Below, in pieces: positions 22,311-42,166 of a stretch of 42,166 nucleotides of DNA (the stretch's first letter is position 1; each line of letters begins with the position of its first letter). The notes under the pieces are model-generated. The model did not search any database, was not told the origin of the DNA, and worked only from the letters and a program-made list of their open reading frames with translations. A program made the translations under genes and the position numbers. This DNA is from a virus (taxonomy: Duplodnaviria > Caudoviricetes). The DNA lies in IMG/VR virus record IMGVR_UViG_3300031912_000029, positions 1-42,166 of that record; one strand, 5' to 3'.

Positions 22311-22319
22311 GTAGCTAAG

Positions 22320-22793
22320 ATGTCGTACTTTGCCAACATTCTAGCTATCCACCTCGCCCTCGCCCCCGTTCCTCCGAGCAAACCCAGCCCCGGGCCCCAA
22401 AATCTGCCCTTACTGCGCTTTTTAGCCCAACTTCCTGCCTCAGATCTCCAGGAAAGAGCTTATCAAGCGTCTAAGAGCTGGAATTTGCGCGCAAATAACT
22501 GCTGGATGGGCCTAATCGGCCTAAAACAGCAGCCCAGACCGACCGAAACTGAGCTAATTACGGCGTGTGGACCGTACTCGAGGCGCGGAACCGCCTCACA
22601 GATCATGTCTTACATCACCCAGGAGGGGCACTATGATCTTCAGCAAACTCTTACAGGCAGCTCTAGCGTTCGCCATCCTACTGCTCAACTTCCTCCAAGA
22701 AGTAAACTGGTTGGAGCGCTTCCCCAGTCTCGTCGCAGCCATCACCATGGTGCTGTCAGGCATTCTGCTGGTCGTGGCGCTGGTCGAACATAA
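22320..22793 (+). CDS. hypothetical protein (3' end overlaps holin candidate)
   Basis: ORF fills gap; C-terminal part may be read-through overlap. Confidence 0.45.
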   Translation: MSYFANILAIHLALAPVPPSKPSPGPQNLPLLRFLAQLPASDLQERAYQASKSWNLRANNCWMGLIGLKQQPRPTETELITACGPYSRRGTASQIMSYITQEGHYDLQQTLTGSSSVRHPTAQLPPRSKLVGALPQSRRSHHHGAVRHSAGRGAGRT

Positions 22794-22812
22794 TCGGGCC
22801 AAGCCCAAGTGA
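22633..22812 (+). CDS. holin candidate (2 TM)
   Basis: AGGAGG SD, two TM helices, basic C-terminus, upstream of endolysin. Confidence 0.55.
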   Translation: MIFSKLLQAALAFAILLLNFLQEVNWLERFPSLVAAITMVLSGILLVVALVEHNRAKPK

Positions 22813-23039
22813 GAGCTCTGGGGGCGCTCCTAGCTTGTGTAGTTATCCTGCACGGTCCAGATGGATCGAGGCTGCTCATTCAATCCAGGCATCTCATCGG
22901 CGTGCGCGAGGTTACTCACGACCACGTAGCTAAGGGCTCCCACGCCGTGGTCTATACCACTGACGAGAATTGGGCCGTAACTGAGACTGGCAAGGAGGTA
23001 GCTGAGAAGCTCGAGCACTGCCGCAAGCTAGACCCATGA
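22809..23039 (+). CDS. hypothetical protein
   Basis: GTGA/ATGA overlaps at both ends. Confidence 0.55.
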   Translation: MRALGALLACVVILHGPDGSRLLIQSRHLIGVREVTHDHVAKGSHAVVYTTDENWAVTETGKEVAEKLEHCRKLDP

Positions 23040-23533: not shown

Positions 23534-23647
23534 GCTGGCCACCCGCGTGGCACGGCGTCGAACACCTCATCAGATGGCTCGGTGTTGGACCTGTGCCCTT
23601 CAAGCCCGCGAGTCGGATTACTCCTTTCTGGGCTCGAGGAGGTAGGA

Positions 23648-24106
23648 ATGAACATCTCTGAGGCTGGGGGCAACGTGCTGATTGAGCGGGAAGGCATGCG
23701 CCTCGAAGCCTACCAGGACAGTGTGGGGGTCTGGACTATCGGCGTTGGTCACACTGCCGCAGCCGGACCCCCTGAGCCCAAACCCGGCATGACCATCAGC
23801 GAGGAGGAGGCTGAAACCATCTTCATCCAGGACCTCACCGAGTTCGAGGAGGCTGTCAATGACCTCGTCAAGATGCCCATGCGCCAACACCAGTACGACG
23901 CGTTCGTCTCCATCTGCTTTAACATCGGCCAGGGCGCTTTCGCGGACAGCACTTTCCTCGAGCGCTTCAACCAGGGCGATGTGCCTGGATGCGCCGAGGC
24001 CATCCTTATGTGGGATCAACCACCTGAGATCATTCCGCGCCGCCAGGGTGAGTATGTGCAATTCCTGGGTTACATCGCTCGCATCGAAACCATAGTGGTT
24101 GCCTAA
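23648..24106 (+). CDS. endolysin, GH24 phage lysozyme
   Basis: EGMRLEAYQDSVGVWTIGVGHT catalytic E-D-T; QYDAFVSICFNIG; RR..E. Confidence 0.93.
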   Translation: MNISEAGGNVLIEREGMRLEAYQDSVGVWTIGVGHTAAAGPPEPKPGMTISEEEAETIFIQDLTEFEEAVNDLVKMPMRQHQYDAFVSICFNIGQGAFADSTFLERFNQGDVPGCAEAILMWDQPPEIIPRRQGEYVQFLGYIARIETIVVA

Positions 24107-24133
24107 AGATGTCGTGACAATGGAGGCGGCTCA

Positions 24134-24622: not shown

Positions 24623-24911
24623 GATGTCGTGCCTAAGTCCCCAGTTCATAGCTAACATCATAGTCCTGATCGCCATTGTGGCCATCATCCGACTGGGTTG
24701 TTTGAGGCTGCGGTGATAGATCGGCGCGAATATAATCGCGAGTACAGGCGGAAGCACCGAGCCAAGGACCCTTGGAAGCGTAACCACTCGGTCGAAGGGA
24801 CGAGGTATGTGCCACCAGAGGTATGGCTGGAACGGGATTACGCCCTCAATCAGCCTAGAAGCTTGACCGCGGAGCTACTAGGGGATCCCTTGCCAGGAAG
24901 GAGCGCACTGG

Positions 24912-25385
24912 ATGCACAGAGTGATCAAGGAGCTAGCCTGGGCAGCACACTCCAAGAGGCCCCCAGGACTGCCTTTCGGCCGTTGTCGAGGAACCGCCGC
25001 AATAGGCCTGCGCTATGAACGCAAGGTTGCGGCTCAATTTCCCAGCGCCATCCATGGACAGTGGTGGAACTTCTGCGATGCAGCCGGCCTCGGATACTGC
25101 CAGACCGACGTTGTGCTGCTATTGTTCGGCCATCTCATTATACTCGAATGCAAGCTTACGGATTGCCTGTCAGGCCGTGCCCAGCTCGCTGAGCTTTACG
25201 TGCCCGTGGTGTCTAAAGCGCTGGCGCGGCCAGCTCATGGTATCATTGTCGCCAGGAATGCGGCTGCAGACAGCGATCCCAGACTCGTTGTTGGCACTAT
25301 GGCGGAAGCACTACGGCTCACCTGCGCCAAAGGAGTTATACCGACGCTCCAGTGGCTCGGCAAAGCGCGCCTGCCCCAGTCTTGA
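24912..25385 (+). CDS. PD-(D/E)XK-type nuclease
   Basis: YE...QTDVV...ILECK...QL..LY. Confidence 0.65.
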   Translation: MHRVIKELAWAAHSKRPPGLPFGRCRGTAAIGLRYERKVAAQFPSAIHGQWWNFCDAAGLGYCQTDVVLLLFGHLIILECKLTDCLSGRAQLAELYVPVVSKALARPAHGIIVARNAAADSDPRLVVGTMAEALRLTCAKGVIPTLQWLGKARLPQS

Positions 25386-25476
25386 GCACACCTTGTCGCT
25401 GCCCTCCCCGCAGGGGCTTGATAAGTCAACACCCCCGTGAGATCCTAGCTGCACCCTCAACCAAGGAGTACGTTCA

Positions 25477-25938
25477 ATGCCAGGCTTCAGCACTGACGGC
25501 ATGCCTACTGTCCCTGTGGGCTACACTTTCACCGGCGCAGAGCTCGTCGCCGTAGACACCGGTCTCGGCCAGGGCATTAACCCCGCCACTTTCGCCTGCA
25601 GCCTTGCCCAGCTGGGTTTTGGCTCTATGCAGACGGTTGTGCCGCTCACTGGCTTCAGCATCACAGTCACAGCCCCAACCAACATCCTGCAGCTGACGCC
25701 GGCTGGCACGCTCGCCACAGGCACCATCGTGTTCCCCAGCAACGCGGTGAATGGTCAGACTCTGAGGATCATGAGCACGCAGATAGTCACCGCGCTGACC
25801 CTTACGCCAGGCCAGAACCCTGTGGGCGGCGTCATGACGAACCAGACGATCAACTCCTCTGCCTCGGCCCTCGCCGCCAACACGGCTCTGGAGTGGCAGT
25901 ACCAAGCCTCCAATAATACCTGGTACAGGATTCAGTAA
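25477..25938 (+). CDS. beta-rich virion fibre/adaptor-like protein, no signal peptide
   Basis: PAGTLATGTIVFPSNAVNGQ...WQY...TWYR; AAGGAG SD. Confidence 0.6.
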   Translation: MPGFSTDGMPTVPVGYTFTGAELVAVDTGLGQGINPATFACSLAQLGFGSMQTVVPLTGFSITVTAPTNILQLTPAGTLATGTIVFPSNAVNGQTLRIMSTQIVTALTLTPGQNPVGGVMTNQTINSSASALAANTALEWQYQASNNTWYRIQ

Positions 25939-25953
25939 CCTGGGAGGGGTGCC

Positions 25954-27585
25954 ATGAAAAGGTTAATTTGGGCACCGCTCCTAGCAGGTGCCCTGTTAGC
26001 GTTGGCGCCCCTTAGCGCCAACGCTCAGATCTTCCAGGGTCAACGCGTTACGACCTGCGGGACTGGTGGCTCAGCCGTACCACCGGGTTCCCCGGCCCCA
26101 GTCACCATCGATCAGAACGGCTACACCTGCACCTCGGGCACAGGTGGTGGAGGAGGGGGCGGTGCGGTCACAGCCGCAGTCGGTAGCTTCGTAACTGGCT
26201 ACTCGCCTGACGTAGGTAGCTCGAGCACTACCGCCTGGACAGGCACAGGCACGCCTACGATGCTCGGTCTGCTCCAGGGTATCTACAATGGGGTCATCCT
26301 GGGCACAGGCTTGTTCGGCGCAGTTAGCCCCACGTCCGGCATCGCCATTGGCGCGAAGAACGGCACGAACCTCGTCCAGCTCAGCGCGGACGGCTCGAAC
26401 AACCTAAATGTTAACTGTACGGTCGGGTGCGGTGGAGCGGGCACAGTCAGCAACGCCGGGAGTGCGGTCGCCACGTCCAGCACCAACATTGGGGCCGTGA
26501 GTTGGAACTATGGCTTCAATGGAACGACTTGGGATCAACTCCAGGTTGATGGCTCTAAGAACCTGAAAGTCAACTGCACCATCGGCTGTGCAGGTGGCTC
26601 AACGAGCAATGCGACCTCCGGCGTAGCAACCAGCTCGACGAACGGCGCGACAGTCGCCTGGCTCTACGCATTCAACGGCACAACTTGGGACCAGCTGCAA
26701 GATGACGCCTCGAAGAACCTAAAGGTTGGCGGCATAGCTAGCAGCTTCGTGGATGGCTGGAGCGTCACGGCCGGGACCAAGGCTGATGCAGCCTACGCCG
26801 GATCTGGTGGAGCCTCCGAGATCGCAGCCCTTAAGGGCATCTACAATGCAGCCATCGCGCCGCTGGCTGCCGGCTCGGCCATTATCGGTAAGGTCGGAAT
26901 CGACCAGACTACTCCCGGCACTACGAATGGCACCTCGTTGGCGTTCATTGGTGGCAGCGCAGTGGCGTCCGGCTCGGGCGCAGCTGGTGCTGGCGCAGCG
27001 CGCGTCACAGTGGCTACAGACTCGGCCACGGTGGCAGGCTCGGCCAGCTTGCCTACCGGCTCTAACATTGTGGGCAAGGTAGGCATAGATCAAACCACAC
27101 CTGGGACTACGAATGCGGTCCAGATCACCGGCGCATTGCCGGCCCTCGCTACCGGCTCGAACGTCGTCGGTCAGGTCTCAATCAACCAGACCACTCCCGG
27201 CACCACCAATGCTGTGCAGTCGGTCCCTGGCACCACTGGGGGCCTGAGCTTCTTCTTCCTGCAGCCTATCGCCGGTAACAACTCAACCAACATCAAGGCT
27301 AGCGCAGGGCAGCTCTACCACGTCACAGCGACTAACAACTCTGCCACGATCAACTACTTGCGGTTCTACAATACGGCTGGCGCGCCAACCTGCACCAGCG
27401 CGACGGGCATAGTCTACCAGATTGCTATCCCGGCTTCTACCTCAGGTGCTGGGTTCGTGCAGGACATCAGTATGGGCCTGCCGTTCAGCACGGGCATAGG
27501 GATCTGCGTCACCTCGGGCTATACCACCACAGATAACACCAACGCCACAGCTAATGCCATCTCACTGACGGTGCTCTATAAATGA
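25954..27585 (+). CDS. signal-peptide fibre-like protein with internal repeats
   Basis: MKRLIWAPLLAGALLALAPLSANA|Q; repeats GIDQTTPGTTN and FNGTTWDQLQ. Confidence 0.8.
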   Translation: MKRLIWAPLLAGALLALAPLSANAQIFQGQRVTTCGTGGSAVPPGSPAPVTIDQNGYTCTSGTGGGGGGGAVTAAVGSFVTGYSPDVGSSSTTAWTGTGTPTMLGLLQGIYNGVILGTGLFGAVSPTSGIAIGAKNGTNLVQLSADGSNNLNVNCTVGCGGAGTVSNAGSAVATSSTNIGAVSWNYGFNGTTWDQLQVDGSKNLKVNCTIGCAGGSTSNATSGVATSSTNGATVAWLYAFNGTTWDQLQDDASKNLKVGGIASSFVDGWSVTAGTKADAAYAGSGGASEIAALKGIYNAAIAPLAAGSAIIGKVGIDQTTPGTTNGTSLAFIGGSAVASGSGAAGAGAARVTVATDSATVAGSASLPTGSNIVGKVGIDQTTPGTTNAVQITGALPALATGSNVVGQVSINQTTPGTTNAVQSVPGTTGGLSFFFLQPIAGNNSTNIKASAGQLYHVTATNNSATINYLRFYNTAGAPTCTSATGIVYQIAIPASTSGAGFVQDISMGLPFSTGIGICVTSGYTTTDNTNATANAISLTVLYK

Positions 27586-28925
27586 AGCTCCTACGCCTAA
27601 TCTTAGCTCTGGCACTTGCTAGCTCGCCCGCAGGGGCGGCCATTCATGGCAGTAGCGCCGTGCCGACGCTGATGGTAACGCCGATACTGTCGCAGAATGG
27701 TGGCTCTGGTACTCCGCCCAGCAACACTGTCGTAAACTATGGCTTCATTAACGGCAACGCCGCTGGAAGCAACTGGAATGCAGCTGAAACTGCAACACAG
27801 ATGCCGTTCCCAGTCTCTGGGACCCTCAGCAACCTGACTGTTAGGTTTCCCACCGCAGTCGCGGCCGGAACCGCCAGCACTTGTAACGGCGTGCTACAGG
27901 CCAGCCCATGCTATGGTATCCAGCTTCGCGTAGGGGGTGTAACCCAAACAATGGGCTGCGTTATCACCAGCGCTTCATTGACCTGCACAGATAACTCCAA
28001 CACCTATGCAGTCAGCCCTGGCCAGATTATAAACTACATCAGCACCCCGGCAGGCACACCAACGGCTCAGGTCGCCACCCTGCCGGTCCAAGTGTCTATG
28101 GTGTTCACCTCCTCGGTAGGGAATGAGAGCCCCTTACTTAGCTCCTGGCTCGGTGGTAACCTGCCTGCCACTGGTATCCAGTATGTAGCGATGGTGGGAG
28201 GATCGACAACCGGGCAAACAACCGAGTCCATTGCTTCCTCTGTCATGCCTGCAGCTGGCACCGTCGATCACCTCTACGTCCAGTCCAGTACTGGCGGCCC
28301 CGGCGCAGGTGCTAGCTGGACCTTCACGATCTACCAGAACGGCAATCCAACAGCTGAGGGCTGTACACTGTCTGGCAGTCAAGTCCAGTGCAACGATCCT
28401 ACCAACTCGATCACAGTAGCGGCCGGCGATACGCTGTCTCTCCAGGTTTGCCCTTCGAACACGGCGACCTGTCCTGCTGGTAGTGCTCCAGGCGGACGCA
28501 GCAGCAGGCTGTCATCCCGATGGATACCCTCTACTCCAGGCCAGTCTATCGTGTCTGTTAATACCCAGACAACGATCAACGGTGCTGCTGGTGCTACCAG
28601 GTGGCAGCCAGTGGACGGCCCTGGCTCTACTACCTCAACCGAGGTTGACTATATCGTAGTTCCAGTTGGGCTAACCATCAGGAACTTATATGAGTCGCAA
28701 GCCGTCGCACCAGGAGGTTCTTCGACGCGCGCCTGGACCTTTCGGGATAATAATGTAAGCCACTCACCCGTCTGCACTGTCACCAGCTTAGTTACATCCT
28801 GTCAGGATCTAAGTGGCAGCTTCTCGACCTCGACGAACGATCTAATAGATTGGCAGTTCACTAACAGTGGCGCGCAAGCTGCTTCGACCTGGACTAAACT
28901 CAGCGCCGTGGTGACAGTCCCATGA
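27582..28925 (+). CDS. signal-peptide Cys-rich protein with three tandem beta domains
   Basis: MKLLRLILALALASSPAGA|A; repeated P..GT..L...C.....C.D unit. Confidence 0.8.
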   Translation: MKLLRLILALALASSPAGAAIHGSSAVPTLMVTPILSQNGGSGTPPSNTVVNYGFINGNAAGSNWNAAETATQMPFPVSGTLSNLTVRFPTAVAAGTASTCNGVLQASPCYGIQLRVGGVTQTMGCVITSASLTCTDNSNTYAVSPGQIINYISTPAGTPTAQVATLPVQVSMVFTSSVGNESPLLSSWLGGNLPATGIQYVAMVGGSTTGQTTESIASSVMPAAGTVDHLYVQSSTGGPGAGASWTFTIYQNGNPTAEGCTLSGSQVQCNDPTNSITVAAGDTLSLQVCPSNTATCPAGSAPGGRSSRLSSRWIPSTPGQSIVSVNTQTTINGAAGATRWQPVDGPGSTTSTEVDYIVVPVGLTIRNLYESQAVAPGGSSTRAWTFRDNNVSHSPVCTVTSLVTSCQDLSGSFSTSTNDLIDWQFTNSGAQAASTWTKLSAVVTVP

Positions 28926-31174
28926 AGCGCCACCTCCTAGCCCTAGCCCTGGCGCTGGCTCCTGCACCTGCAGGCGCGCAGCTCATGACGCTGGGCTATG
29001 GCGCCGGTGGGGCTGGTGCGGCCGGCCCTGTGACCACCTACGCAGTCGCACCCCTGCTGCTGGCGGGCTCGACCAACCTCAGCGCTAGCACAAATGCCTA
29101 TTTCCCCCTCCAGGGAGGCGGCTCGAGCGTCCTCAGCGTGGCGCTGCTCACGTTGGCGCAGGCCCAGACCCCTATGCCCACGTATGGAGTGATCAGCAAC
29201 TTGAGGGCCCAGTTCAACACTGGCATTACCACTGGCACCTACACTGTCACACTGATGCAGAACGGCTCGACCACCGCGCTCAGCTGCGCAGCCTCGACGG
29301 GGGTGCAGTCATGTACGAGTGCGGCGCTCATCACAGTGAACCTGGGCGATGCGCTGGCCTGGCAGGTTGCGCCGAGCGGCACGCCTACCGCCCAGCCTTC
29401 AGCCTTCCAGATCAGCGCGACCTTCGCCTCGGGTGTGGGGAACGAGGCCCCGATCCTGGCGGGCGGCACCGGGACTGCGAGCCCGGGCGGCTTCGCACAG
29501 TACATCCCCTTCCAGAACTCCTTCAATCCGAACCTGACGGAGAGTGCCAGCTCGACACTCATTCCGTTCCCAGGCACCATTGACCATCTGTACTACACGA
29601 TGGACGCCGCCTCGACAGGCGGGGGCCAGTATCAAATCCGCATCTTTAAGAATGGGGCGACTACCACGTTGACCTGCACCACGGCGATCAATGGCCAGAG
29701 CTGTCAGGATCTGGTGGACAGCTTCACGGTGGTGGCGGGCGATACCATCAGTGTGCAGATCTGCCCCTCGAACTCGAGCACGTGCCCTGCTGGGACGCAG
29801 CCCTCGGGTCAATGGCCTCAGGTGGGCGTCCGGTGGCAGGCTGGCGGCACCAACAATGGTACTGCGAACTCTTACCCCCTGATGAGCATCTCGGCGGTGC
29901 AGCCGACCAGCGCGGCGACGCTCTACGGCCCTGTGGTGGGCAGCTTCAGCAATGTCAGCACTGAGACCGACCTTAACACTGTCCCGCTGAACTACTTCGT
30001 ACTGAGCCAACTCACGGCCTCGATTAGCCCCTCGCCGAGCACGAGCAAGACCTTCACGCTGCACCAGAACGCGGCGGTTCCCGTTGGCAGCAACATAAAC
30101 TGCACTATCACCAACCCCGCCACAACCTGCACCTCGTCGTTCCTCTTCGACAAAGGTAAGTTGTTCAGTCTGGCCGATTCCACAGATATACAGGTGACCG
30201 GGACAGACACTTCAGTCACATGGATGAAGTACTCTGTCGTGGCGAACGCCTCTAGCTATGTGGGGCCGGCCGATGTGAGTGCGAGCTTCTTCGCAGGCGG
30301 CGACCTCTACTATGGGACTAGGGCCTTCAGCGCGGGCTGTGCCACGCAGGGCTGTAATATAATGAACCTGACGCGCGCGAGCGATAGCCACAACTGCGAT
30401 GTATACCCGACTAGCAGTGGGGACATGGGAAATGTCGTAGGCTGTAGCACGCCCGCAGATAATGGCACCGCGGTAGCGACCTGGTGCAACGCGACGACCT
30501 GTAATGTGGTGGAGTGGTACACCCAGCAAACCTATACGGAATGCACCGGCTCGACGCAGTGTCATATCTCCCAGGCCACGGCCGCAAAGCAGCCGGTCTT
30601 GACGTTCAACTGCATCGGTGGGAAGCCGTGCGTCACCTTCACAGGTAGCAGCAGCCAGTTCCTGCAGAGCGGCACCACGAGCGCCATGTCCACCAGCGGC
30701 ACGCAGTTCTTCGCCGCAATAGCTGATCGTACGGCCAACTTCTCAACTGGCGCGAGCATCAGCGGACAGGGCACTGGCGCGTCTCCGTGCTGTGCTAATG
30801 GGTATGGCGCTACGACCAACCAGGCGGTGCTGAACAACGGCACCAGTAACGCCTTCCAGACTGCCTCAGACAGCGTGATGCACTCCCTCTTCTTCCTGAT
30901 GGGCTACTCGGCCGTTACGACCAAGGTCGTCGGAGATGGGCTCGTCTCTGTGGACAATGTGCTGGGTGCGTTGCAGTCGAGCAATGGGACGAGGGTGCCA
31001 AGCACGAGTGGCACTGTGACGCTCGGCGCGAGTAACGCGACTACCCAGGCCAACTTCCTAACCGGGAACATCGCGGAGTGGTTCAACTGGGGTAATGCCA
31101 CCCTGACCACCGCGGCCCTGACGGCGTTGTGCCACAACCAGTACACCTACTACGGGATGGCAACCTCATGCTAG
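28922..31174 (+). CDS. signal-peptide protein, paralog of 27582 plus C-terminal ConA/arabinofuranosidase-B-like domain
   Basis: MKRHLLALALALAPAPAGA|Q; YGTRAFS...LTRASD...V.EWY.Q...QATAAKQP...GNIAE. Confidence 0.78.
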   Translation: MKRHLLALALALAPAPAGAQLMTLGYGAGGAGAAGPVTTYAVAPLLLAGSTNLSASTNAYFPLQGGGSSVLSVALLTLAQAQTPMPTYGVISNLRAQFNTGITTGTYTVTLMQNGSTTALSCAASTGVQSCTSAALITVNLGDALAWQVAPSGTPTAQPSAFQISATFASGVGNEAPILAGGTGTASPGGFAQYIPFQNSFNPNLTESASSTLIPFPGTIDHLYYTMDAASTGGGQYQIRIFKNGATTTLTCTTAINGQSCQDLVDSFTVVAGDTISVQICPSNSSTCPAGTQPSGQWPQVGVRWQAGGTNNGTANSYPLMSISAVQPTSAATLYGPVVGSFSNVSTETDLNTVPLNYFVLSQLTASISPSPSTSKTFTLHQNAAVPVGSNINCTITNPATTCTSSFLFDKGKLFSLADSTDIQVTGTDTSVTWMKYSVVANASSYVGPADVSASFFAGGDLYYGTRAFSAGCATQGCNIMNLTRASDSHNCDVYPTSSGDMGNVVGCSTPADNGTAVATWCNATTCNVVEWYTQQTYTECTGSTQCHISQATAAKQPVLTFNCIGGKPCVTFTGSSSQFLQSGTTSAMSTSGTQFFAAIADRTANFSTGASISGQGTGASPCCANGYGATTNQAVLNNGTSNAFQTASDSVMHSLFFLMGYSAVTTKVVGDGLVSVDNVLGALQSSNGTRVPSTSGTVTLGASNATTQANFLTGNIAEWFNWGNATLTTAALTALCHNQYTYYGMATSC

Positions 31175-31287
31175 TGCGTATCATCATAGGTCTGGCGCTC
31201 ATAACCGCCCTGGCGGCTTGGCACCACGGCTTTACTGGCAGCGGTGGTGGAGGAGGGGGTAGCAACCCCCTGGTCATTATCTTTTAG
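31168..31287 (+). CDS. 39 aa membrane/signal-like peptide
   Basis: MLVRIIIGLALITALAAWHHGFTGSGGGGGGSNPLVIIF fills the gap exactly. Confidence 0.5.
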   Translation: MLVRIIIGLALITALAAWHHGFTGSGGGGGGSNPLVIIF

Positions 31288-31297
31288 GAGCGAGGTC

Positions 31298-32596
31298 ATG
31301 CGACACCTCAGATGGCTTGCAGTGGGGCTGAGCCTCATGGCCTCCCCGGCCCTAGCGGGCAGTCAGACTAGCATCGGCTACACCCCAGGCTCGGGCGTGA
31401 ACGTCAGTGGCTTTACGTGCTTTAGTACGCTCTTTTGCGCGGGCCATGTGCTGATCGACAACACCGGGGCTGAGAAGGGCACCAGCGGTAACCCTGTGTT
31501 TGTGCAGCCGAATGGCTCAGGCACTCAGCCCATTAGCGGCTCGATTAACCCCTCGGGCGGCCCTGTGCTGGCCACAGCCACCACGGCCGACCCCTCCTAC
31601 TCGAATGGTACCAGCAACGCACTGTCCACCAACCTGGCTGGCTACATGCGGATCATCGCCCCGGCGAGCCAACTCTTAGCGTATGGGAGCTCGACGGTTG
31701 GCACTGACCCTGGGCAGGGCATTGTGGCGCTGTGCCAGAACGGCGCGAGTCCGGCAGTTAGCGCCACGCAGACGGTCGCGCTGCAATGCAATGGAACGGG
31801 GCAGCTGGTGACCACCTCGGGCAACATCGCACAGGGGGCGGCAACCAGTGGTCAGACTGGTATTTTGAGCCAGGTCGCAGTGGTGAGTGGTGCTCAGACC
31901 TACACGGCTGGCAACACTAACCCACTGACTCAGACCACGCAGGGCTACCTGAATGTTAACGTGGCGGCGGGCTCGGCAGCGAACGCTGCAGCTAGCGCAA
32001 CGGGCTCAGCCGTTCCGGCCCAGGCCGGCTATACTGGCGTTAAGATTGGCGCGAACCTGGCTGGTCTGACGGGGACGGTAGTGGGAAGCTCACAGGCGGC
32101 AGACATCAATATCGTTGGGATTAATGGCGCAGCTGCACCTACGGGTACTGGTACTTCGGCGGGGGCGCAGCGCGTCGTACTTAGCTCCGACTCGACAGGC
32201 CCTGTGGCTATCAGCCAGACCACTCCTGGCTCGACCAACGGTGTTAGCCCAGTCCTGTCCGGTACAGGCGGCTGGACTCCGGTCAACCTCGTAGGACTGA
32301 CCAATACGGCAGTTAGCATCAAGGCCAGCGCGGGTCAGTTGGGCATGCTCTACTGCTATAATCCCAACTCCTCGAACGAGGTATATGTGCAGGTGTTCAA
32401 TCAGTCGGGCGGCATCACGGTGGGCAGCACCACGCCGGCCATGTCTGTGGGTATACCTCCGGTGCAGAATGGCGGCTTTCCGATGAACTTCCCTGGCATC
32501 CAGTTCACAACCGCTATGAGTGTTGCTGCCACATCCACACCGACTGGTGGCACGGCTCCAGGTACGCCGATCAACTGCACAGGTGCCTATAACTGA
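31298..32596 (+). CDS. signal-peptide fibre-like protein, paralog of 25954
   Basis: MRHLRWLAVGLSLMASPALA|G; shared QTTPG.TN...IKASAGQL C-terminal domain. Confidence 0.8.
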   Translation: MRHLRWLAVGLSLMASPALAGSQTSIGYTPGSGVNVSGFTCFSTLFCAGHVLIDNTGAEKGTSGNPVFVQPNGSGTQPISGSINPSGGPVLATATTADPSYSNGTSNALSTNLAGYMRIIAPASQLLAYGSSTVGTDPGQGIVALCQNGASPAVSATQTVALQCNGTGQLVTTSGNIAQGAATSGQTGILSQVAVVSGAQTYTAGNTNPLTQTTQGYLNVNVAAGSAANAAASATGSAVPAQAGYTGVKIGANLAGLTGTVVGSSQAADINIVGINGAAAPTGTGTSAGAQRVVLSSDSTGPVAISQTTPGSTNGVSPVLSGTGGWTPVNLVGLTNTAVSIKASAGQLGMLYCYNPNSSNEVYVQVFNQSGGITVGSTTPAMSVGIPPVQNGGFPMNFPGIQFTTAMSVAATSTPTGGTAPGTPINCTGAYN

Positions 32597-35500
32597 TGCG
32601 CCGCAACGTACTCATAGCTGGTCTGCTAGCCGTAGCGCTAGCGAGTTCAGCCCTTGGGGCTGAGCTCAAGGTGTTTGGCGGGAAGAAGCCAGCCGCAGCA
32701 CCACCGCCTCCCAACTCAAAGACAGTCTTTATCACCGCGACGGGTAACTGGACTGTCCCTAGCGACTTCACCTCGACTAACACGGTTTGGGCCTGGGGTG
32801 GTGGCGCAGGTGGAGGGGGCGGCAACACCGGCAGCTGTGGGGCAGGTGGTGCTGGTGCAGAAGCCACAATCGCCAACATCACACTGACGCCTGGAGCGCT
32901 GGTCCCAGTCACCATCGGCGCGGGTGGGGCTGGCGGCGCTAATACGGCCAATAGCTGCGGCGTAGCTGGTGGTGACACTAACTTCAACTCGGGCCAGGTG
33001 ATTGCGAAGGGCGGCTCGGTTGGTGGCTTCACCAGTGGCGGGCCGGGGGCAACTGGCGGCGCAGGTGGTCAGGCTAGCGCCTCGACCCCTAGCGCGACAG
33101 CTCATAGTGGTGGGGCGGGTGGTAGCACGCCGACCAGCGCCGCTGGTGGTGCGGGTGGAGGCGGTGCTGGTGGTCCGCATGGGAATGGCGCGCAAGGCTC
33201 CAACCTACCTAACGTCACCTCGAGTGTGGGTGGCAGTGGCGGTGGTGGTGCTGACGGTGGTGGCACGAGCCCTGCAGTTAGTGGCACTAATGGTACTGCT
33301 GGCGGGTTAGCGCAGGATGGAACGGCCGGCGGCACAGCTGGAGTGAATGGCGGCCCCGGCTCACATGGCTCGGGCGGTGGCGCGAGTAATGGTGCGGCTA
33401 GCCCTGCGAACACTGGGAATGGAGGCAATGGTGGTGCTGGCGTAGGCTTCACTCAGACTAGTGATAGCTCTGTGGCTGGACCAGGTGGTGGGGGTGGCGG
33501 CGCTGGTGCAGTTACGGGCACGGGTGGTGGGACTGCGGGCAACGGTGGCAATGGTGGGCTGTTCGGCGGCGGTGGAGCTATTGGTGGGGCGGGGCCAGCA
33601 CCAGGAGCTGGCGGGTCCGGCGCAGCCGGTGGGATCGTCGTTACCTATACCACTGGGACGATTGCCGCGCCTCAGATCTCAGGGCCGACCGGCACAGTCA
33701 CTACGTCTGCTACCACGGTCACGGGGACTGGGAACAACGTAGGCGACACGATCACAGTCTACATTGATGGAGGACCTCCCACCCCGCCGGATGGCACTAC
33801 GACTGTAGTCACGGGCAATACGTGGAGCTTTAACACTGTAGCGCTGGGCAATGGCGCGCACAACGCAGTGGCGACGGAGACTACGGCCCTAGGGACCTCG
33901 GGCGTAAGTAACCAGGTCAACTGGAATACCAGCGTGGCCGCGCCTCCAGGCAATACGCTGAACCCGAACAATACTGCAAGCTCGGTTGGTCTGGATAGCA
34001 CGCGGCTGATTGCTACTGTCGGAGCCACTACCCCGCTGGCCCAGACGATGGGCGCGGTTGGCTACACCTCGGGTAGGTATCACTACGAGGCGCAGTTGGG
34101 TACGCCTGGGAACTTCCAGAGCGTTGTGGGGGTGGGCAACACCGCGCACGGGCTGACGACTGGGGTGGGCTCGGATGTCAATAGCATTGGCTACTATGGC
34201 AGTAATGGCTCGGGTCAGGGCCAGATCCTATACAACAATGTGGCCCAGATCAGCAATACGGCGCTCAATGCTAACGCTGGGGACCTGTGGGCCGTCGAGG
34301 TAGACCTGACGAACGGCCTATTCTGGGCGCAGGATGTGACCACTGGCAGCAAGTGGAATGGCAGTGCGAGCGCCAACCCTGGCACGGGCGTTGGAGGTGT
34401 GAGCTTCGCCACCTCCACGGCGGGCTGCACTGCCCCGTGCAGCTGGTTCGTAGATGCGCAGTTGGTGGGGATTGTGGGCCGGACTGTGACTGTGAACTTT
34501 GGCGCGAGCACGTTCACGGCGCAATGCTCAACGGGCTTCATCCCCTGGAATGGGACTACGGCCTGTCCCGCTGCACCGCCGCCGAACCAGTCCGGACCGG
34601 GAACCGTAACGGCAGTCAGCTTACTGCCCTCGAACGTGCCAGTCGCCTCAAGCAGCAATACCTGGCATACGACCGCGCGGCCTTGGACTGCAGCGGCAGT
34701 GGCTAACTCTACCTACCTCACGCGCCTTAACAATCTGGTGACTTGGTATGCCTCGAGAGCCAATAGCGGCACGGGATGCATAGGCAGCTCGGGGTTAGAT
34801 CCTTATACCGGCACTAGCAATGCTGGGACGGCATTCAACGGCAGCTTGGAGCTGTCCTTTGGCGCGCAGTTCAAGGGTAACAACCTGACCTATGCCACTA
34901 ATGGCCTCGCCACTGCAGTGATGAACTGCTCGACTGCGTCTTACCACGCTCACACCAGCGCGCAAGACTTCAACATCGGGCCGCTCAACTTGGCTTGGCA
35001 GCTCTACAATACGTATGGTGGCGCGAGTTTTAGCGCGAGTCAGAAGTCAACGTGGCTCGATACCAACCACCTGAACGCTTGGTATGGAGTAGGTAATAAT
35101 ACTAATAACTGGGGCATGTACGATATGTGGGGCGCATGGCTCGCCATCCAGAACGGGCTGAGCACCTTCACAGGTGGTAGTGTGGGCGGCACCGCAGGCA
35201 TTGATTGCATGTGGACGGGTGCAACCTGCAGCTTTAACACTTTCACTATGCACCAGGCCAACCAGTTCAACAATCCTCCCTTCGACCTGTACATGGACCA
35301 GAATGGAGTCACGCCAGATGGGCTGTGGGTTGAGCGTCAAGCTACTACTCTCAATGCCATGATTAGCGAGGGCTACAATGGGGCGCAAGCTGGTGCCATT
35401 CGGACTGCCACCTCGACGGCTGCGCTTAGCGGGATGTATATGCAGGCGCAAGATGGGGAGTCGGCGTCTGGAGGACGCCAGGACCACCACAACTGGGTTG

Positions 35501-36894
35501 AGCATGCGCGCATCCTAACGGACGAGATCATGGCTCAGCAGGTTGGTGCGAGCGACTCGTTCCGCGCGGGCCAATTCGAGCATGCCGCGCAGATGGACTT
35601 CAAGGTAACGGGCAACTGGCTCAATCCAGCCTGCTGCAACGGCGCGACCTTCTTCGCGACTAAGGCGCACTACAACCCCAACACCGCCTGTTGCCAGCAG
35701 TATGCGCCGGCCTCGGGCGGCGACTATGGTTATGGCTTACAGCTGATGTATCTGCTTGCAGCGGCCTATACTAATAAGACTGCCTCGGCTATCACTGAGC
35801 AGCCTATGCCCTCGGAGATCGGAGGGTATGCCTTCGCTACGAACTCGGACTTCGGCCCGCAGGTGGTGATGGCGGCGGGCGGCACCGGGCTGCAGGCGGC
35901 AATGGCCGGCTCGACTGCCAACACCACGTTCGACAATCCGACGCTGTGGACCGCAGTCGGCATTGAGAAGATCGGCCGTGTGGGCTGGGATGCGCGCATT
36001 GGGCCCGCAGACACGGGGTATCCTAGCCTTGGCGGTCAGGTAAGCTTCGGCCCGACCTGGAACAATGGCTCGTGGACGAGGCTCGCGCAGAATCCGGCGA
36101 GCTGCCATGGCACCTTCACTACTACGTTTGCCAACCCAGCTGTTACGTTCGGCAAGATTGTGTGGAACTGTGGGACTCCGACCTTCACGCAGAACCTGAC
36201 CCTAACGCCAGATGGAGTGCTGAGTCAGACAACCTGCACGGGATGCAGTGGGCTGTGGGGCATGACCTTCCCCATTATGACGAGCGACGGCGATAGTGGT
36301 AGCTGGGGCACTACCACCATGACTACCAACATCAACGCCGCTGGTGGCTTTGCCTCGACGACCTACGGCCCGACTGGGGACACACAGAACTATATCACCC
36401 TGAGCTCGAATGCCACGACTATGACCTCCGAGGCGAATGTCAATGCACAGGGCGGAAACATCACGCCTGTACGGACGTATACGGGCAGCCCTGATGCGAC
36501 CCAGACGACGTTCGTTTATCCGCAGAAGTCGGGCGAGCCCACAGCAGCTGCGGTGCGTAGCGGTATGACCATCCCTGCGGGCACCACGAACCAGTACTCC
36601 AACACGGCGCTGAACTCGTCAGTCACCTCAGGGAATAATGGCACCTACTATATTGGGCCGTTGGCGGCAGGTGGCTGGGCGAACAGCATCACTATTGGTA
36701 GCTCCACGATCAACTTCACCTCCGGCGGCACCGCAACGCCCTGCTACTTCATCATGAACCTGAGTGGCGGGAATGTGACCAGCATCGAGGTGGATCGCAC
36801 GATCACGGCCAGCATCCCGAATGGGGCGCATGGCAACTACACCGGGGCGAATACGCTTAGCCTGACAGCCTACAACCCAAGGACTAATCTATGA
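32596..36894 (+). CDS. 1432 aa signal-peptide multidomain protein (Gly-rich, Ig-like, SPRY-like, possible carbohydrate-active C-terminal region)
   Basis: MRRNVLIAGLLAVALASSALG; WGGGAGGGGG Gly-rich domain; GDTITVYIDG...GAHNAVATET; SGRYHYE...GDLWAVEVDL. Confidence 0.8.
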   Translation: MRRNVLIAGLLAVALASSALGAELKVFGGKKPAAAPPPPNSKTVFITATGNWTVPSDFTSTNTVWAWGGGAGGGGGNTGSCGAGGAGAEATIANITLTPGALVPVTIGAGGAGGANTANSCGVAGGDTNFNSGQVIAKGGSVGGFTSGGPGATGGAGGQASASTPSATAHSGGAGGSTPTSAAGGAGGGGAGGPHGNGAQGSNLPNVTSSVGGSGGGGADGGGTSPAVSGTNGTAGGLAQDGTAGGTAGVNGGPGSHGSGGGASNGAASPANTGNGGNGGAGVGFTQTSDSSVAGPGGGGGGAGAVTGTGGGTAGNGGNGGLFGGGGAIGGAGPAPGAGGSGAAGGIVVTYTTGTIAAPQISGPTGTVTTSATTVTGTGNNVGDTITVYIDGGPPTPPDGTTTVVTGNTWSFNTVALGNGAHNAVATETTALGTSGVSNQVNWNTSVAAPPGNTLNPNNTASSVGLDSTRLIATVGATTPLAQTMGAVGYTSGRYHYEAQLGTPGNFQSVVGVGNTAHGLTTGVGSDVNSIGYYGSNGSGQGQILYNNVAQISNTALNANAGDLWAVEVDLTNGLFWAQDVTTGSKWNGSASANPGTGVGGVSFATSTAGCTAPCSWFVDAQLVGIVGRTVTVNFGASTFTAQCSTGFIPWNGTTACPAAPPPNQSGPGTVTAVSLLPSNVPVASSSNTWHTTARPWTAAAVANSTYLTRLNNLVTWYASRANSGTGCIGSSGLDPYTGTSNAGTAFNGSLELSFGAQFKGNNLTYATNGLATAVMNCSTASYHAHTSAQDFNIGPLNLAWQLYNTYGGASFSASQKSTWLDTNHLNAWYGVGNNTNNWGMYDMWGAWLAIQNGLSTFTGGSVGGTAGIDCMWTGATCSFNTFTMHQANQFNNPPFDLYMDQNGVTPDGLWVERQATTLNAMISEGYNGAQAGAIRTATSTAALSGMYMQAQDGESASGGRQDHHNWVEHARILTDEIMAQQVGASDSFRAGQFEHAAQMDFKVTGNWLNPACCNGATFFATKAHYNPNTACCQQYAPASGGDYGYGLQLMYLLAAAYTNKTASAITEQPMPSEIGGYAFATNSDFGPQVVMAAGGTGLQAAMAGSTANTTFDNPTLWTAVGIEKIGRVGWDARIGPADTGYPSLGGQVSFGPTWNNGSWTRLAQNPASCHGTFTTTFANPAVTFGKIVWNCGTPTFTQNLTLTPDGVLSQTTCTGCSGLWGMTFPIMTSDGDSGSWGTTTMTTNINAAGGFASTTYGPTGDTQNYITLSSNATTMTSEANVNAQGGNITPVRTYTGSPDATQTTFVYPQKSGEPTAAAVRSGMTIPAGTTNQYSNTALNSSVTSGNNGTYYIGPLAAGGWANSITIGSSTINFTSGGTATPCYFIMNLSGGNVTSIEVDRTITASIPNGAHGNYTGANTLSLTAYNPRTNL

Positions 36895-39800
36895 GAAAGC
36901 TAGCTCTAGCTCTGGCACTCATGCTGGCGGCGCCGCAAGGCGCCTGGGCCGCGCAGGGGTTCCTGTGCTGCTTCACCGCGCCCACCGCGCCGAGCTTGCC
37001 AACGCCGCCCACTATTGGAGGTGGTGGGAATACCGCCTCGTTTACGCAGGGCGGTACGGCCACAGTTGTTAACTCGGCGCTGACACTCAGTGGGACGGTC
37101 ACAGGTATGACCATCACCATCTCTAACAACTTCGTTCAGGGGGACGTGCTGACCTTCACCCCATCTGGTGGGGTTAATGGCACCTACTCCAACCTGGGGG
37201 TGTTGAGCCTCAGTGGGAATGCGGCCGCATCGGTCTATCAGGCTGTAGCGCGTACGGTGCAGTTCAGCACTAGCATCGCAGATCCAACCCAGTCAGGGAC
37301 GCGGTCGCCTCGCATGATCTCCTTTGTGGCGCAGAATCAGGGGGCGGGCTCAAGCGCTGCGAACTCGAACGTGACAGTCATCGCGCTGCCTACGATCTCC
37401 GGCACTGCTACTGGGAACAACTATACTCAGGGCGGTGGGGCTGTGACGGTCGCGCCGAACCTAGTGCTGTCAGACTTCTCCAGCACCTCGATCAATAGCG
37501 CTACGGCCCAGATCACCTCGACGTTCCAATCGGGCGATCAGCTGGTATTCACCAATCAGGCCGGCATTAGTGGCAGCTATAATGCAGGGACCGGCCTACT
37601 CAACCTGACTGGTCCGCAGACGGTCAATGCCTACCAACAGGCGATGGCCAGCATTGGCTACAACTTCACTGGGGCGGATGTTACGAATGGCGGCTCGAAC
37701 CGCAGTCGGACGGTTGTGTGGCAGGTGACTGATGGGAATGGGAATGCCTCGGCAGCAGGCAGCGCTACGACCCTGTTTACGGTGGGTGTAGGCAGCACTA
37801 TCAAGCCCTCCTGGGTGCCGAGTTGGGCCGCACAGAGCTGTAACTACACTGTGAACCAGTGTTGGAATGGCACGGTGGTGGTACTGAGCCCGGGCTTTGA
37901 CAGCGTGACTCGGTCTACGCAGGAGACCTGTCAGACTGCAACCACAGTTACCTACGCCGCAGCCAACATAGGTTGTGTGAATAGTAATGGGCTGGCCGTT
38001 TGGGAGGGCCGCACGAACCTCATTGCTGGGGCCAGTGACATCAGTAACCCGACCTACTGGAATCCCTACACCACTGGCTCGGGGACGGTGGTGATCTCGG
38101 GGCCGAGCAATGGTGGTGTGGTAGTCGGGCCGGATGGCAGCACTAACGCAACGAAGGTGACGTTTCAGCGCACCTCGGTGGTAAGCTTTGGTGACAATGC
38201 CATTGTGACTAACCACTCGGCCGGGTTGACAGCTGGGGGTATCTATTCGGATAGCATCTGGATGAAGGCTGACACCGCGGGTGATGTGGGCAAAGTCATC
38301 ACCCTGCAGTTTTGGGACGGTACGACCTCCCTGCAGAACACCAGCCGGAACATTACACTGACGGCCAACTGGGCCAACTATCAGTATACTGCGACTCTGC
38401 AGACCTGTTTGACAACAAGCTTCAACTGTCAGTTCAACTTTGGCTTCTCGGGTGCAGCTAGCAACTCGCAGACCGGCACCGTGAATGTGGATGTCTGGGG
38501 GCCGCAGTGGGAGCTGGGGAACTTCGCCACTCCGTTCATACCTACGACTACAGGGCCCGCCTCGAGGAGCACGGACAACATCGTGCCGACTGGTACGTTT
38601 AGCAGTAGTATGGCTGGAAATGTGGGCACGTTAGAGGTGCAGAGCTTTGGGGTCAACCAGGTGCCTTCGACCCTTGTAGACTCGAATGGTCTGCAGTTCT
38701 TCGGCATTACGGGTAACCAGACCCTGGTTAGTGGGCTGCCTACCAGTAATGGGCCGGGGACCTCGGCTACCTGGCTGAATGCTAACATCTCCGACATCAC
38801 CTGGGACACCACCGGCCGCACTATGGCCCTCAATCATCAGGTCTATTATAAGGACTCGGGCGCACCGCAGCCGGCCGCGCCGTTCCACTTTGGCGCGCTG
38901 AACGGCGCAACCCAGGTCATCAATGGTTACATCCAGCTGGCGAGTGTTGGCAACTCGCGCGTGAGTGATACCACTGTGGGGGTGCCGCCCGGAGGTACAG
39001 TCTACTACTTCAGCGCGGCGGGTAACAACAACAATAACTGTCTGACTACCACCACGACCTGCCTCGCTACTAAGATCTCCAGCATGAGTGTGCATCCCAG
39101 TGATGTGTTCAACTTCAATAAGGGAGATGTGTTTGGCAATACCTGCATTCAGTTCAATGGGAATGGGGGCAATACGCAGGGGGCGTCTGGATCACCCATC
39201 ACGATCCAGAGCTATGGAACGGGCAACCACCCAGCTATCACTAATAGTACCACTCAGTGCCCTTCGGAGGATACGAGCTCGCCCGCGCTGACGACCTCGG
39301 CAGTGGTGGAGTTCAACGGGGTGAGTGGCGTGATCTGGAATGGTGTGGATGTGTACTGCGACACGGTGGGGAATGTGCCAGCTGGTATCAAGCTCACTAA
39401 CTATAGCTCGCAGGTGATGAGCAACGTCATTATTGAGAATGTGAATAGCACGTCAGGTTGCCAGAGCCCCACGGGCAATTATAATACTCAGGGCGCAGCG
39501 ATCTCGTATGACTTCTGGGGACCGGCCCCTCGCAGTACGGCGTATGGCGGCGGTATCCAGCAGGTCACCCTGCTGAACATCACCTGTAGCCAGTCGACTA
39601 ATACCTCACAGGCTGGGGCGCAGGCTTGCATCCAGAGCCAGGGCAATCAGGGGAATCAGATCAATTTCGCGAGCATCCAGGGCATCTTAGCCTATAACCT
39701 GGGTGGCCAGGTCTATACCCCTGCTGCGCCTAACTCAGGTGCTATCGGTCTAGGTCTGCTGATCTGGGGCCAAGTTAACCTGCTTGGTATCTCGCCGATG

Positions 39801-40778
39801 CAGTACATAGTGGTGCATGACACCAGCGTGAATATTGGGGGCTGCGGCGGGCCGAGCTCGATGTGGACGATGGATTCCTACAACTACACCATCCAGTTCA
39901 GTGAGTTCTACAATGAGCAGGCTGCAGCTGTGAATGGGACGTGTGACCATGCCGGGCTGGACATTGACCGGGGCAACAATGGGGTCATTGTGCAGTATAA
40001 CTGGGTTCACTTCACGGCCGGCCCGAGCTTTGAGACTGTGATTGGGCCGCCCGATCAGGGATTGACGTGGGGAGCGCCGAACCCAGTAACGTTCCGCTAC
40101 AATATTGGGGAGGGCTCGAACCAGAACACGTACACTACGTCTGGGGGCGGCTATGGCAATAGCTTCTCTAATGGCTGGTACAACAACACCTCGACTCCGT
40201 CGCTTGAGTACATCTACAATAACACCTTGAACATGAGCAACTCGCCGACCGGCGTCTCAACTCCAGTGTTCTTTGCCTCGTGTCCAGGGGTGACAGGCTC
40301 GTTATTTGCCAATAACCTGATGGTGGCGCCGCAGTATCAAGGCTCCGCGCTGATGATCTACAATCTGCTGACCTGTCCCAGTCTACAGTTCCTCAACAAC
40401 GGCTACTACTGTCCGAACTGTGGGGGCACCGGAGCTACACCGACAGGGCCGTATTTCTGGAGGGTTGTTAACAATACTGTGAGGGGCTCGGCCGCGTGGC
40501 AGTCCCTTATAACTGGGGGCGACATTAATGGGGTGTTTGCAGTCAACCCGACGATCACGACTGGTAATCAGGCGTGCTACACAGGTACGACCGCGCCGAC
40601 CTCGGGGCCCCAGCCATGTCCTACGGGCTACTCACCCGCGGCAGCTTACAAGGCGCCCGCTGGGCTGGATCTGACGCAGAGTGCGTATGGCTCGTTGGTG
40701 GTGGGCGGCTTCGATTACTATCAGAATGTGATACCCTGCGTCAGTGGCAGTGGTTATCCTATAGGTGCCTCATGCTGA
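36891..40778 (+). CDS. 1295 aa signal-peptide protein (adhesin-like repeats, phage head-spike-like/CBM domain, C-terminal beta-helix)
   Basis: MRKLALALALMLAAPQGAWA|A; GLAVWEGRTNL...QWELGNFATPFIPT; YYFSAAGNN...GDVF...PITIQSYGTG. Confidence 0.8.
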   Translation: MRKLALALALMLAAPQGAWAAQGFLCCFTAPTAPSLPTPPTIGGGGNTASFTQGGTATVVNSALTLSGTVTGMTITISNNFVQGDVLTFTPSGGVNGTYSNLGVLSLSGNAAASVYQAVARTVQFSTSIADPTQSGTRSPRMISFVAQNQGAGSSAANSNVTVIALPTISGTATGNNYTQGGGAVTVAPNLVLSDFSSTSINSATAQITSTFQSGDQLVFTNQAGISGSYNAGTGLLNLTGPQTVNAYQQAMASIGYNFTGADVTNGGSNRSRTVVWQVTDGNGNASAAGSATTLFTVGVGSTIKPSWVPSWAAQSCNYTVNQCWNGTVVVLSPGFDSVTRSTQETCQTATTVTYAAANIGCVNSNGLAVWEGRTNLIAGASDISNPTYWNPYTTGSGTVVISGPSNGGVVVGPDGSTNATKVTFQRTSVVSFGDNAIVTNHSAGLTAGGIYSDSIWMKADTAGDVGKVITLQFWDGTTSLQNTSRNITLTANWANYQYTATLQTCLTTSFNCQFNFGFSGAASNSQTGTVNVDVWGPQWELGNFATPFIPTTTGPASRSTDNIVPTGTFSSSMAGNVGTLEVQSFGVNQVPSTLVDSNGLQFFGITGNQTLVSGLPTSNGPGTSATWLNANISDITWDTTGRTMALNHQVYYKDSGAPQPAAPFHFGALNGATQVINGYIQLASVGNSRVSDTTVGVPPGGTVYYFSAAGNNNNNCLTTTTTCLATKISSMSVHPSDVFNFNKGDVFGNTCIQFNGNGGNTQGASGSPITIQSYGTGNHPAITNSTTQCPSEDTSSPALTTSAVVEFNGVSGVIWNGVDVYCDTVGNVPAGIKLTNYSSQVMSNVIIENVNSTSGCQSPTGNYNTQGAAISYDFWGPAPRSTAYGGGIQQVTLLNITCSQSTNTSQAGAQACIQSQGNQGNQINFASIQGILAYNLGGQVYTPAAPNSGAIGLGLLIWGQVNLLGISPMQYIVVHDTSVNIGGCGGPSSMWTMDSYNYTIQFSEFYNEQAAAVNGTCDHAGLDIDRGNNGVIVQYNWVHFTAGPSFETVIGPPDQGLTWGAPNPVTFRYNIGEGSNQNTYTTSGGGYGNSFSNGWYNNTSTPSLEYIYNNTLNMSNSPTGVSTPVFFASCPGVTGSLFANNLMVAPQYQGSALMIYNLLTCPSLQFLNNGYYCPNCGGTGATPTGPYFWRVVNNTVRGSAAWQSLITGGDINGVFAVNPTITTGNQACYTGTTAPTSGPQPCPTGYSPAAAYKAPAGLDLTQSAYGSLVVGGFDYYQNVIPCVSGSGYPIGASC

Positions 40779-41305
40779 GACTAGCTCTGATCTTAAGCCT
40801 GGTGGCGACTGGCGCGCTCGCACAGCAGGTGCCTTGGCGACAGCCGAGGCCGGATGGGAATGGGCCGTCCAACCTGGTTGGGAGTAAGGAGCACCCCATT
40901 CCGCCCGAGCAGCCACTCTTTCGGGGACCACTGTCCAAGGAGGAAGTGGATATGATAATCCTGGCGCTGGAACGGTTGAAGCGCGAGGTGGTTGTGCCGG
41001 CGCGCGATGGGGTGCCTGAGTACCGCGATGAGGAGACTATAAAGCATGCGGAGATGGCCGAGCTGGCATTGGCAGCGGACTGGAAGACAGCCATTGTGAA
41101 CCTAACGCTGCTGCCCACCATTGGCCTGGCCCTTAGTCGCGCAACCAATGTTGAGGTTGACAGGCTGGACGGTAATGACATTATGATCATTGACCGTGAG
41201 GCTAGTCAGAAGGCATCGGAGCCGTACTGTGACCTCATCAAGAAGATTAACCGAGCGGGAATCTGTACTGTATGGGTTGCTCCTAACCCTGAAAGGATCA
41301 ATTGA
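40772..41305 (+). CDS. signal-peptide hypothetical protein
   Basis: MLRLALILSLVATGALA|QQ. Confidence 0.7.
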   Translation: MLRLALILSLVATGALAQQVPWRQPRPDGNGPSNLVGSKEHPIPPEQPLFRGPLSKEEVDMIILALERLKREVVVPARDGVPEYRDEETIKHAEMAELALAADWKTAIVNLTLLPTIGLALSRATNVEVDRLDGNDIMIIDREASQKASEPYCDLIKKINRAGICTVWVAPNPERIN

Positions 41306-42133: not shown

Positions 42134-42166
42134 ATGAATGACTTAGCCGAACTCGAGATCAACCCA

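Follow-up and report, generated by a model that had tools for sequence, protein, structure and literature searches.

Tailed phages are generally regarded as assembling their particles entirely within the cytoplasm. In filamentous phages the virion adhesin pIII carries a Sec leader and periplasmic disulfides, and inoviruses are assembled at the membrane without lysis. Here we analyse a stretch of 42,166 nucleotides (nt) from a tailed phage (IMG/VR record IMGVR_UViG_3300031912_000029, a linear virus record, hereafter the window) that contains an array of large fibre-like open reading frames (ORFs) with predicted Sec leaders, and compare this array, together with a leader-bearing tail fibre encoded outside the window, with the described systems that its parts resemble. 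In Sf6 and P22 the tailspike is the last factor added (PMC9728967), and binding of tailspikes to tailless P22 heads has been observed in vitro (10.1101/2021.09.20.461090), which together make late attachment outside the cytoplasm plausible in the P22-type group. The available text of three further papers describes XD domains of the tailspike TSP4 that dock other tailspikes (PMC8825819), a Pa223 protein, gp52, that is seated on the capsid via an N-terminal arm (10.1101/2025.06.11.659172), and a head spike of RcGTA in which a jelly-roll pentamer base (Rcc01079) holds a glycan-binding fibre (Rcc01080) via a short hydrophobic N-terminal peptide (PMC7296036). Predicted signal peptidase I leaders have been noted on Q-rule genes of unknown function in Porphyromonas gingivalis prophages, where the available part of the source reads the products as modifiers of the host outer membrane (PMC10367356).

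Together with two further records, the window can be joined into a circle of 63,580 bp; the three overlaps are 100%, 100% and 99.9% identical. Downstream of the array this circle encodes terminase, a P22-like portal (PF16510, E 1e-157), a polyvalent protein, scaffold, a P22-type coat (PF11651, E 2e-32) and a gp4-like adaptor (phrog_637 Ad3, E 5e-10), followed by three leaderless genes for proteins of 445, 138 and 133 amino acids (aa), a gp10-like hub (phrog_578 Hc3, E 2e-92), ejection genes and one last gene. The genome is thus that of a P22-like, short-tailed podophage, with the array between the lysis and head genes. A sequence-only reading of the window had placed the array beside the lysis genes; it does lie downstream of them, and it is also directly upstream of terminase, portal and coat.

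The last late gene encodes the only recognisable tail fibre of the genome, whose N-terminal head-binding domain resembles that of the Pam1 tailspike (phmmer E 0.0064; profile against 7eeq, E 1.8e-18) and that of tailspike 9vyg (profile E 3e-19). When all six reading frames of the closed genome are compared with the head-binding profile, this gene is the sole match. Whereas the tailspike of P22-like phages starts at this domain without a leader, here a predicted leader of 18 residues precedes it. Moreover, in our alignment of the domain (A3), two Cys are present in five of six leader-bearing members, while none of 15 leaderless members has any Cys. The tail-fibre gene is leader-bearing in seven of ten complete relatives, which were picked among coat matches by their length (three of the seven, G007, G010 and G012, were assigned by eye, the heuristic described below having missed them). 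The leader of the tail fibre maps as a single change, with support of 91/91, on a tree built from 18 coat rows, some of them near-duplicates. A protein whose type of N-terminal domain is seen to bind the tail in solved structures is therefore predicted to exit the cytoplasm, and we think it quite likely that it is exported and then docks on the particle.

Leaders were called with a heuristic of our own rather than with SignalP, requiring a basic n-region, an uncharged hydrophobic 10-mer and a small-x-small site. By this measure, predicted tripartite leaders of the Sec/signal peptidase I type, with a small-x-small site, are present on all six large array ORFs and on the short ORF that ends the array (40772), as the sequence-only reading had proposed. 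None of the internal positions of the six large proteins passes, and among 243 charged genes of relatives six were called leader-bearing, a control that includes the same bias as our gene caller, which favours an alternative start if a leader results. The leader ends exactly where leaderless homologues start, and orthologous virion-module genes are found with and without predicted leaders.

Cys parity follows leader presence. The ten relatives contain 69 fibre-like genes, of which 26 have a called leader, and all 26 of these have an even number of Cys; the 43 leaderless genes comprise 15 with odd counts, 13 with even counts and 15 without Cys. Even counts among Cys-bearing proteins are therefore found in 26/26 with a leader versus 13/28 without (Fisher p 5e-6; this and the other parity p values are optimistic, as the sequences are related). 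Across low-charge proteins of all fetched loci, counts are even in 58 of 66 leader-bearing proteins, some of the odd-count ones being cut at locus ends, versus 78 of 183 Cys-bearing leaderless ones. The same relation holds within two families of the array: in the 25477 family even counts occur in 21/21 leader-bearing versus 6/24 leaderless Cys-bearing members (Fisher p 8e-8), and in that of 25954 (1288 homologues, with a leader in 96 of the top 119) in 92/96 versus 9/17 (Fisher p 2e-5). The family of the 133-aa protein, leaderless here, has a leader in 8 of 69 homologues, 7 of those 8 with even Cys.

In the array itself, all the expected ORFs are present on the plus strand, seven with leaders and, at its head, 25477 (Table 1). 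Most are coupled, as had been noted: between 25477 and 40772 there are seven junctions, of which five are overlaps of 1-7 nt and two are gaps of 15 and 123 nt. The longer gap divides the array into 25954-27582-28922 and 31298-32596-36891. The six large products are indeed rich in Gly, Ser, Thr and Asn (41-47%) and poor in charge (3-6% Asp, Glu, Lys and Arg). They contain 8, 10, 22, 6, 19 and 26 Cys in gene order, an even count in all except 32596, and in four of the six the Cys cluster more tightly than in shuffled sequences (p 0.0015, <0.0005, 0.026 and 0.011); in 25954 and 31298 the spacing is no tighter than in shuffles. The description of the array as fibre or adhesin proteins suits these six; 40772 was rejected as a fibre, being 26% charged. 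We also rejected an assembly artefact: 40 contigs are recorded for the cluster of 25477 and 31 for that of 27582, many of them identical, and the array ORFs are thus not peculiar to one contig.

Table 1. Array genes and other features of the phage genome. Positions are those of the window unless prefixed by L167, a stretch outside it.
Position	Strand	Feature	Basis or remark
22633..22812	+	59-aa hydrophobic ORF, holin candidate	hydrophobicity and position suggest the role
23648..24106	+	endolysin (phage lysozyme)	PF00959 E 9e-37, phrog_7
25477..25938	+	153 aa, leaderless; N-terminal arm and XD-type beta-sandwich; predicted spike/adaptor	AlphaFold2 (AF2) model, pLDDT 87
25954..27585	+	543 aa; predicted leader, Cys-paired N-module, repeat stalk, C-terminal viral jelly-roll	opens sub-cassette 1
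27582..28925	+	447 aa; predicted leader, repeated Cys-paired domain region	phage-restricted family
28922..31174	+	750 aa; predicted leader, short hydrophobic peptide, Gly/Ala linker, 27582-homologous region, C-terminal domain	22 Cys
31298..32596	+	432 aa; predicted leader, stalk, C-terminal jelly-roll	25954 paralogue; opens sub-cassette 2 after the 123-nt gap
32596..36894	+	1432 aa; predicted leader, Gly-rich fibre domain, middle domains, C-terminal module of ~780 aa	19 Cys
36891..40778	+	1295 aa; predicted leader, multi-domain, fibre/adhesin-like	26 Cys
40772..41305	+	177 aa; predicted leader, charged, not fibre-like	no Pfam/PHROG family match
42134..42166	+	5' end of the gene for the terminase large subunit	portal, coat, adaptor, hub and ejection genes lie beyond the window
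L167:1468-2691	minus	tail fibre, last late gene; 407 aa, predicted 18-residue leader, head-binding domain, Collar domain	6 Cys
L167:9456-11625	minus	leaderless paralogues of 445, 138 and 133 aa, between adaptor and hub	common N-terminal domain

Sequence searches named little here. Pfam and PHROGs put names on almost nothing in the array, and 36891 has no significant Pfam, PHROG or PDB sequence match. Among GenBank phages 25477 has no match and 25954, 32596 and 36891 have one weak match each. PDB sequence searches with three further alignments (A1, A2 and A4) were blank, and promoter and terminator scans did no better than chance.

The ORF that heads the array, 25477, is leaderless, and the 12 in-frame codons upstream of it contain neither a start nor an h-region. 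Its model aligns with CBA120 TSP4-N (7rej; VIA Z 9.2, root-mean-square deviation (rmsd) 4.4, 126 residues aligned), a T4-like baseplate chain (9f4a; Z 8.9) and the capsid-spike knob of Pa223 (Z 8.4, rmsd 2.6, 89 aligned); by Foldseek the best E is only about 7e-3. In related loci the gene lies just upstream of terminase or within the head-tail module. Among the ten relatives, searches found a leaderless copy in G009 and a leader-bearing copy in G004, and six more have a leader-bearing gene at the same position, assigned by eye only. The idea that 25477 is a leaderless adaptor on the virion side thus holds in part: the predicted fold is one known from spike knobs and from adaptors that branch, but a leader is present in 42 of 97 homologues, and for this reason we rejected an obligatory, fixed cytoplasmic adaptor. 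The 25477 product is likely a spike or hub, whose cytoplasmic state here is not conserved.

Both sub-cassettes open with a predicted jelly-roll protein, 31298 being recognised by the hidden Markov model of the 25954 jelly-roll (E 1.8e-13) and by BLASTP against 25954 (E 2e-5). The 25954 jelly-roll was modelled with a pLDDT (the per-residue confidence of the prediction) of 89. Among VIA matches, Bacillus Ena, the Bd2133 fibre, the KHP40 cement protein, PR772 and XepA share the top place at Z 6.9-7.1, values too low for us to name a family for it or for 31298, and Atlas gives a weak pointer to the PRD1 P5N and XepA clusters. Minimal genes of ~150 aa consisting of a leader and the jelly-roll are found between adaptor and hub in relatives. 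The next gene, 27582, has Atlas neighbours among viral hypothetical clusters (TM 0.85), and a leader was called in 6 of its 12 homologues, one of the other six being probably truncated. It shares its repeated region with 28922 (BLASTP E 6e-32), whose C-terminal domain shows a weak likeness to the arabinofuranosidase-B-type domain of the 445-aa gene (BLASTP E 0.008-0.016), a domain matched there by PF09206. By eye, the short N-terminal peptide of 28922 appears similar to the alternating-Leu N-terminal fibre peptide of the RcGTA head spike. In the second sub-cassette, 32596 matches PF21722 (E 2e-8), and its Gly-rich start matches the Pam3 tail fibre (7yfw, E 6e-5, to be taken with caution as the region is of low complexity). 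Its C-terminal module has 234 homologues and is also found in secreted-type bacterial proteins; of 28 aligned members, some are fused to F5/8, malectin, CBM or T9SS-tail domains.

Predicted leaders and mostly paired Cys on fibre-like proteins make it likely that these fold in the periplasm, from where they would join the particle at lysis. The best reading, in our judgement a moderately probable one, is that the locus encodes appendages which leave the cytoplasm through Sec, acquire disulfide bonds and attach to particles at lysis, and we rate the chance that most array proteins end on virions as somewhat better than even. The array and tail-fibre genes would be expressed late; the leader-bearing array proteins and the tail fibre would be exported by the host Sec system and their leaders removed; disulfides would form through the host Dsb system, the periplasmic disulfide-forming pathway, and the proteins would accumulate in the periplasm. 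Once the inner membrane fails and the compartments mix at lysis, they could dock on the tail and capsid of the finished particle. In each of the two sub-cassettes the jelly-roll protein is a possible base for the two fibres that follow, and the appendages may bind or degrade glycans of the host surface or matrix. A fuller picture, to which we give even chances, is a two-compartment virion, infectious only after mixing at lysis, with a cytoplasmic head and tail core and a periplasmic tail fibre, spikes and branched array of captured glycan enzymes; gene-by-gene gain and loss of leaders would allow the phage to acquire bacterial secreted domains that depend on disulfides.

The sequence-only reading had left two options, virion appendages folded in the periplasm or a cell-surface fibre or matrix system. 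The tail-fibre leader, the leader-linked Cys parity and the virion-type folds argue for the former, the binding of the array proteins to virions being our inference. In the main rival, which we consider unlikely, the array proteins would be exported without ever binding the particle; released at lysis or displayed on the infected cell, they would act as free glycan-binding or glycan-degrading proteins or as decoys, with only the tail fibre on the virion. Such a role would suit the absence of a recognised attachment domain from the six ORFs, the position of the array, which adjoins the lysis genes and is separate from the tail genes, and the presence of the 32596 C-terminal module in secreted-type bacterial proteins with CBM or T9SS domains. 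However, 32596 opens with a Pam3-fibre-like domain, homologues of 25954/31298 and of 25477 lie inside the head-tail modules of relatives, and the lack of a called leader in half of the 27582 homologues is easier to reconcile with a virion part than with a protein dedicated to secretion.

The two other rivals fit worse. Leaders could instead be membrane tethers, pro-peptides removed in the cytoplasm or segments skipped by an internal start that gives the virion form, with assembly as usual. The calls are heuristic, and phage proteases have been suggested, in the available text of PMC10367356, to cut some predicted signal peptides on capsid proteins; yet the leader ends at the exact start of leaderless homologues, and leaders occur together with Cys pairs and even Cys counts, a pattern not expected of a pro-peptide removed in the cytoplasm, and we regard this explanation as improbable. 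We give still less credence to a lysogenic-conversion cassette that makes a surface fibre or matrix on carrier cells. The leader genes of Porphyromonas prophages have been interpreted in this way (PMC10367356, available part), and the temperate relative phiAX1 has two leader-bearing genes. Against this, and weakening the cell-surface option as a whole, no integrase family was found among 69 ORFs scanned against Pfam (a few small ORFs fell outside the scan); in addition, the array reads in the late direction as a run of coupled genes that reaches terminase, and none of the genes was recognised as encoding an usher, a secretin or an anchor.

Several observations weigh against export and docking of the array. 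The leaders rest on our own heuristic and on a gene caller biased towards starts that give them. No virion-attachment domain was recognised in the array proteins, the tail fibre outside the window being the only protein with one, and a shared N-terminal docking peptide was not apparent: our motif for such a peptide matched none of the 66 leader-bearing fibres. The 32596 product has an odd number of Cys, and long bacterial-type homologues of its module show no link between leader and parity (4/12 even). The jelly-roll match is generic (best VIA Z 7.1), and some secreted proteins of bacteria have the XD fold too (25477 model against 6o38, Z 8.4; StcE, Z 5.9). The three leaderless appendage candidates next to the adaptor could serve virions without export. 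Finally, a leader-bearing low-charge gene lies within 6 kb upstream in only 9 of 43 terminase-related loci, and the array is thus not a lineage-wide fixture.

Other features of the genome and of its relatives deserve mention. Around the lysis genes, the holin candidate has no significant Pfam match, and a lipobox scan of window positions 21300-25500 and 40500 to the end and of L167 (the L006 stretch and the array lay outside it) gave no candidate, so no o-spanin was identified. The same region of the window encodes a small, Cys-rich, leader-bearing protein of 106 aa (21990-22310, plus), a leaderless, Ig-like-looking ORF of 122 aa without a Pfam match just upstream of the endolysin (23165-23533), and a leader-bearing His/Gly/Pro-repeat protein of 162 aa adjoining the endolysin (24134-24622, plus). 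On the minus strand, a family A polymerase is apparently split into two genes (877-3354 and 4642-5697), one for a uracil-DNA-glycosylase/3'-5' exonuclease and one for a polymerase with an insertion of ~290 aa that looks intein-like by eye; a leader-bearing 147-aa protein lies among the replication genes (3449-3892), and a ParB domain is fused to a DNA methyltransferase (6269-7636). Beyond the window, the polyvalent protein (974 aa, LPD23; L006:6005-8929) is coupled to the portal gene. The window record (G000) has a listed completeness of 21%, yet spans 42.2 of the 63.6 kb (66%). As hints to the host only, a GTDB scan found one locus, on a contig of a Xanthobacteraceae metagenome-assembled genome with 69% coat identity, and 25477 has a Bradyrhizobium homologue. 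In the relative G010, a leader-bearing tail-module protein of 268 aa (L283:3571-4377) ends in Phe and appears by eye to be an outer-membrane beta-barrel. The Pseudomonas phage PAE2 has a leaderless tailspike ORF of 669 aa (L291:14864-16873) that is unannotated in GenBank, where short opposite-strand ORFs are given instead. In the Acetobacter phage phiAX1 (LC644973), the two leader-bearing genes lie in the tail module between adaptor and hub (L292:16419-19313); the second encodes a GH66 enzyme, with its leader start 35 codons upstream of the annotated start, and the word 'signal' is absent from the phiAX1 paper.

If the export-and-docking reading is correct, final assembly at or after lysis must follow from the export of a head-binding tail fibre, the host Sec and Dsb systems are phage host factors, and annotation pipelines mislabel as 'secreted' or 'moron' genes many that encode virion parts. 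A lineage with leader-bearing and leaderless orthologues offers a direct natural comparison, and the question is testable because phiAX1, an inducible and sequenced relative, has two such genes in its tail module. We found no prior account of exported virion fibres in tailed phages in the literature searched, with supplements and most subscription papers outside its scope; in the available portions of PMC3556154, PMC10367356, PMC5723332, PMC8566455, PMC13001222 and PMC9206674, signal peptides come up, if at all, solely in connection with spanins, capsid proteins or unknown genes.

The locus is thus an unusually large case of a recurring design that is apparently undescribed, and whose parts resemble tailspikes, XD adaptors and head spikes. 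The Porphyromonas gingivalis prophage genes share predicted leaders with it, with no link to tail fibres or disulfides in the available text (PMC10367356). The predicted export and disulfides recall pIII, but the present phage is tailed, with head and tail built in the cytoplasm. The array recalls the RcGTA head spike by analogy, in that 25954 and 31298 would each be followed by fibres with short peptides and linkers; there is, however, no sequence match to the array proteins, the first 50 VIA rows for the jelly-roll contain no entry for the RcGTA base (which does not exclude such a base), and a leader on the RcGTA parts is not mentioned in the available text of PMC7296036. The 25477 product is predicted to share the XD fold of CBA120 TSP4-N and T4 gp10, and it differs from these and from Pa223 gp52, in whose paper 'signal' is not among the words of the available text (10.1101/2025.06.11.659172), in being a stand-alone, single-domain protein that in many relatives bears a leader and is predicted to be exported. 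A further likeness is to the tailspikes of P22, Sf6 and Pam1: the tail fibre lies at the end of the late operon and has a head-binding domain of the Pam1 type, but where cultured homologues such as that of Pseudomonas phage PAE2 start directly at this domain, here a predicted Sec leader stands in front of it and the domain has acquired a pair of Cys.

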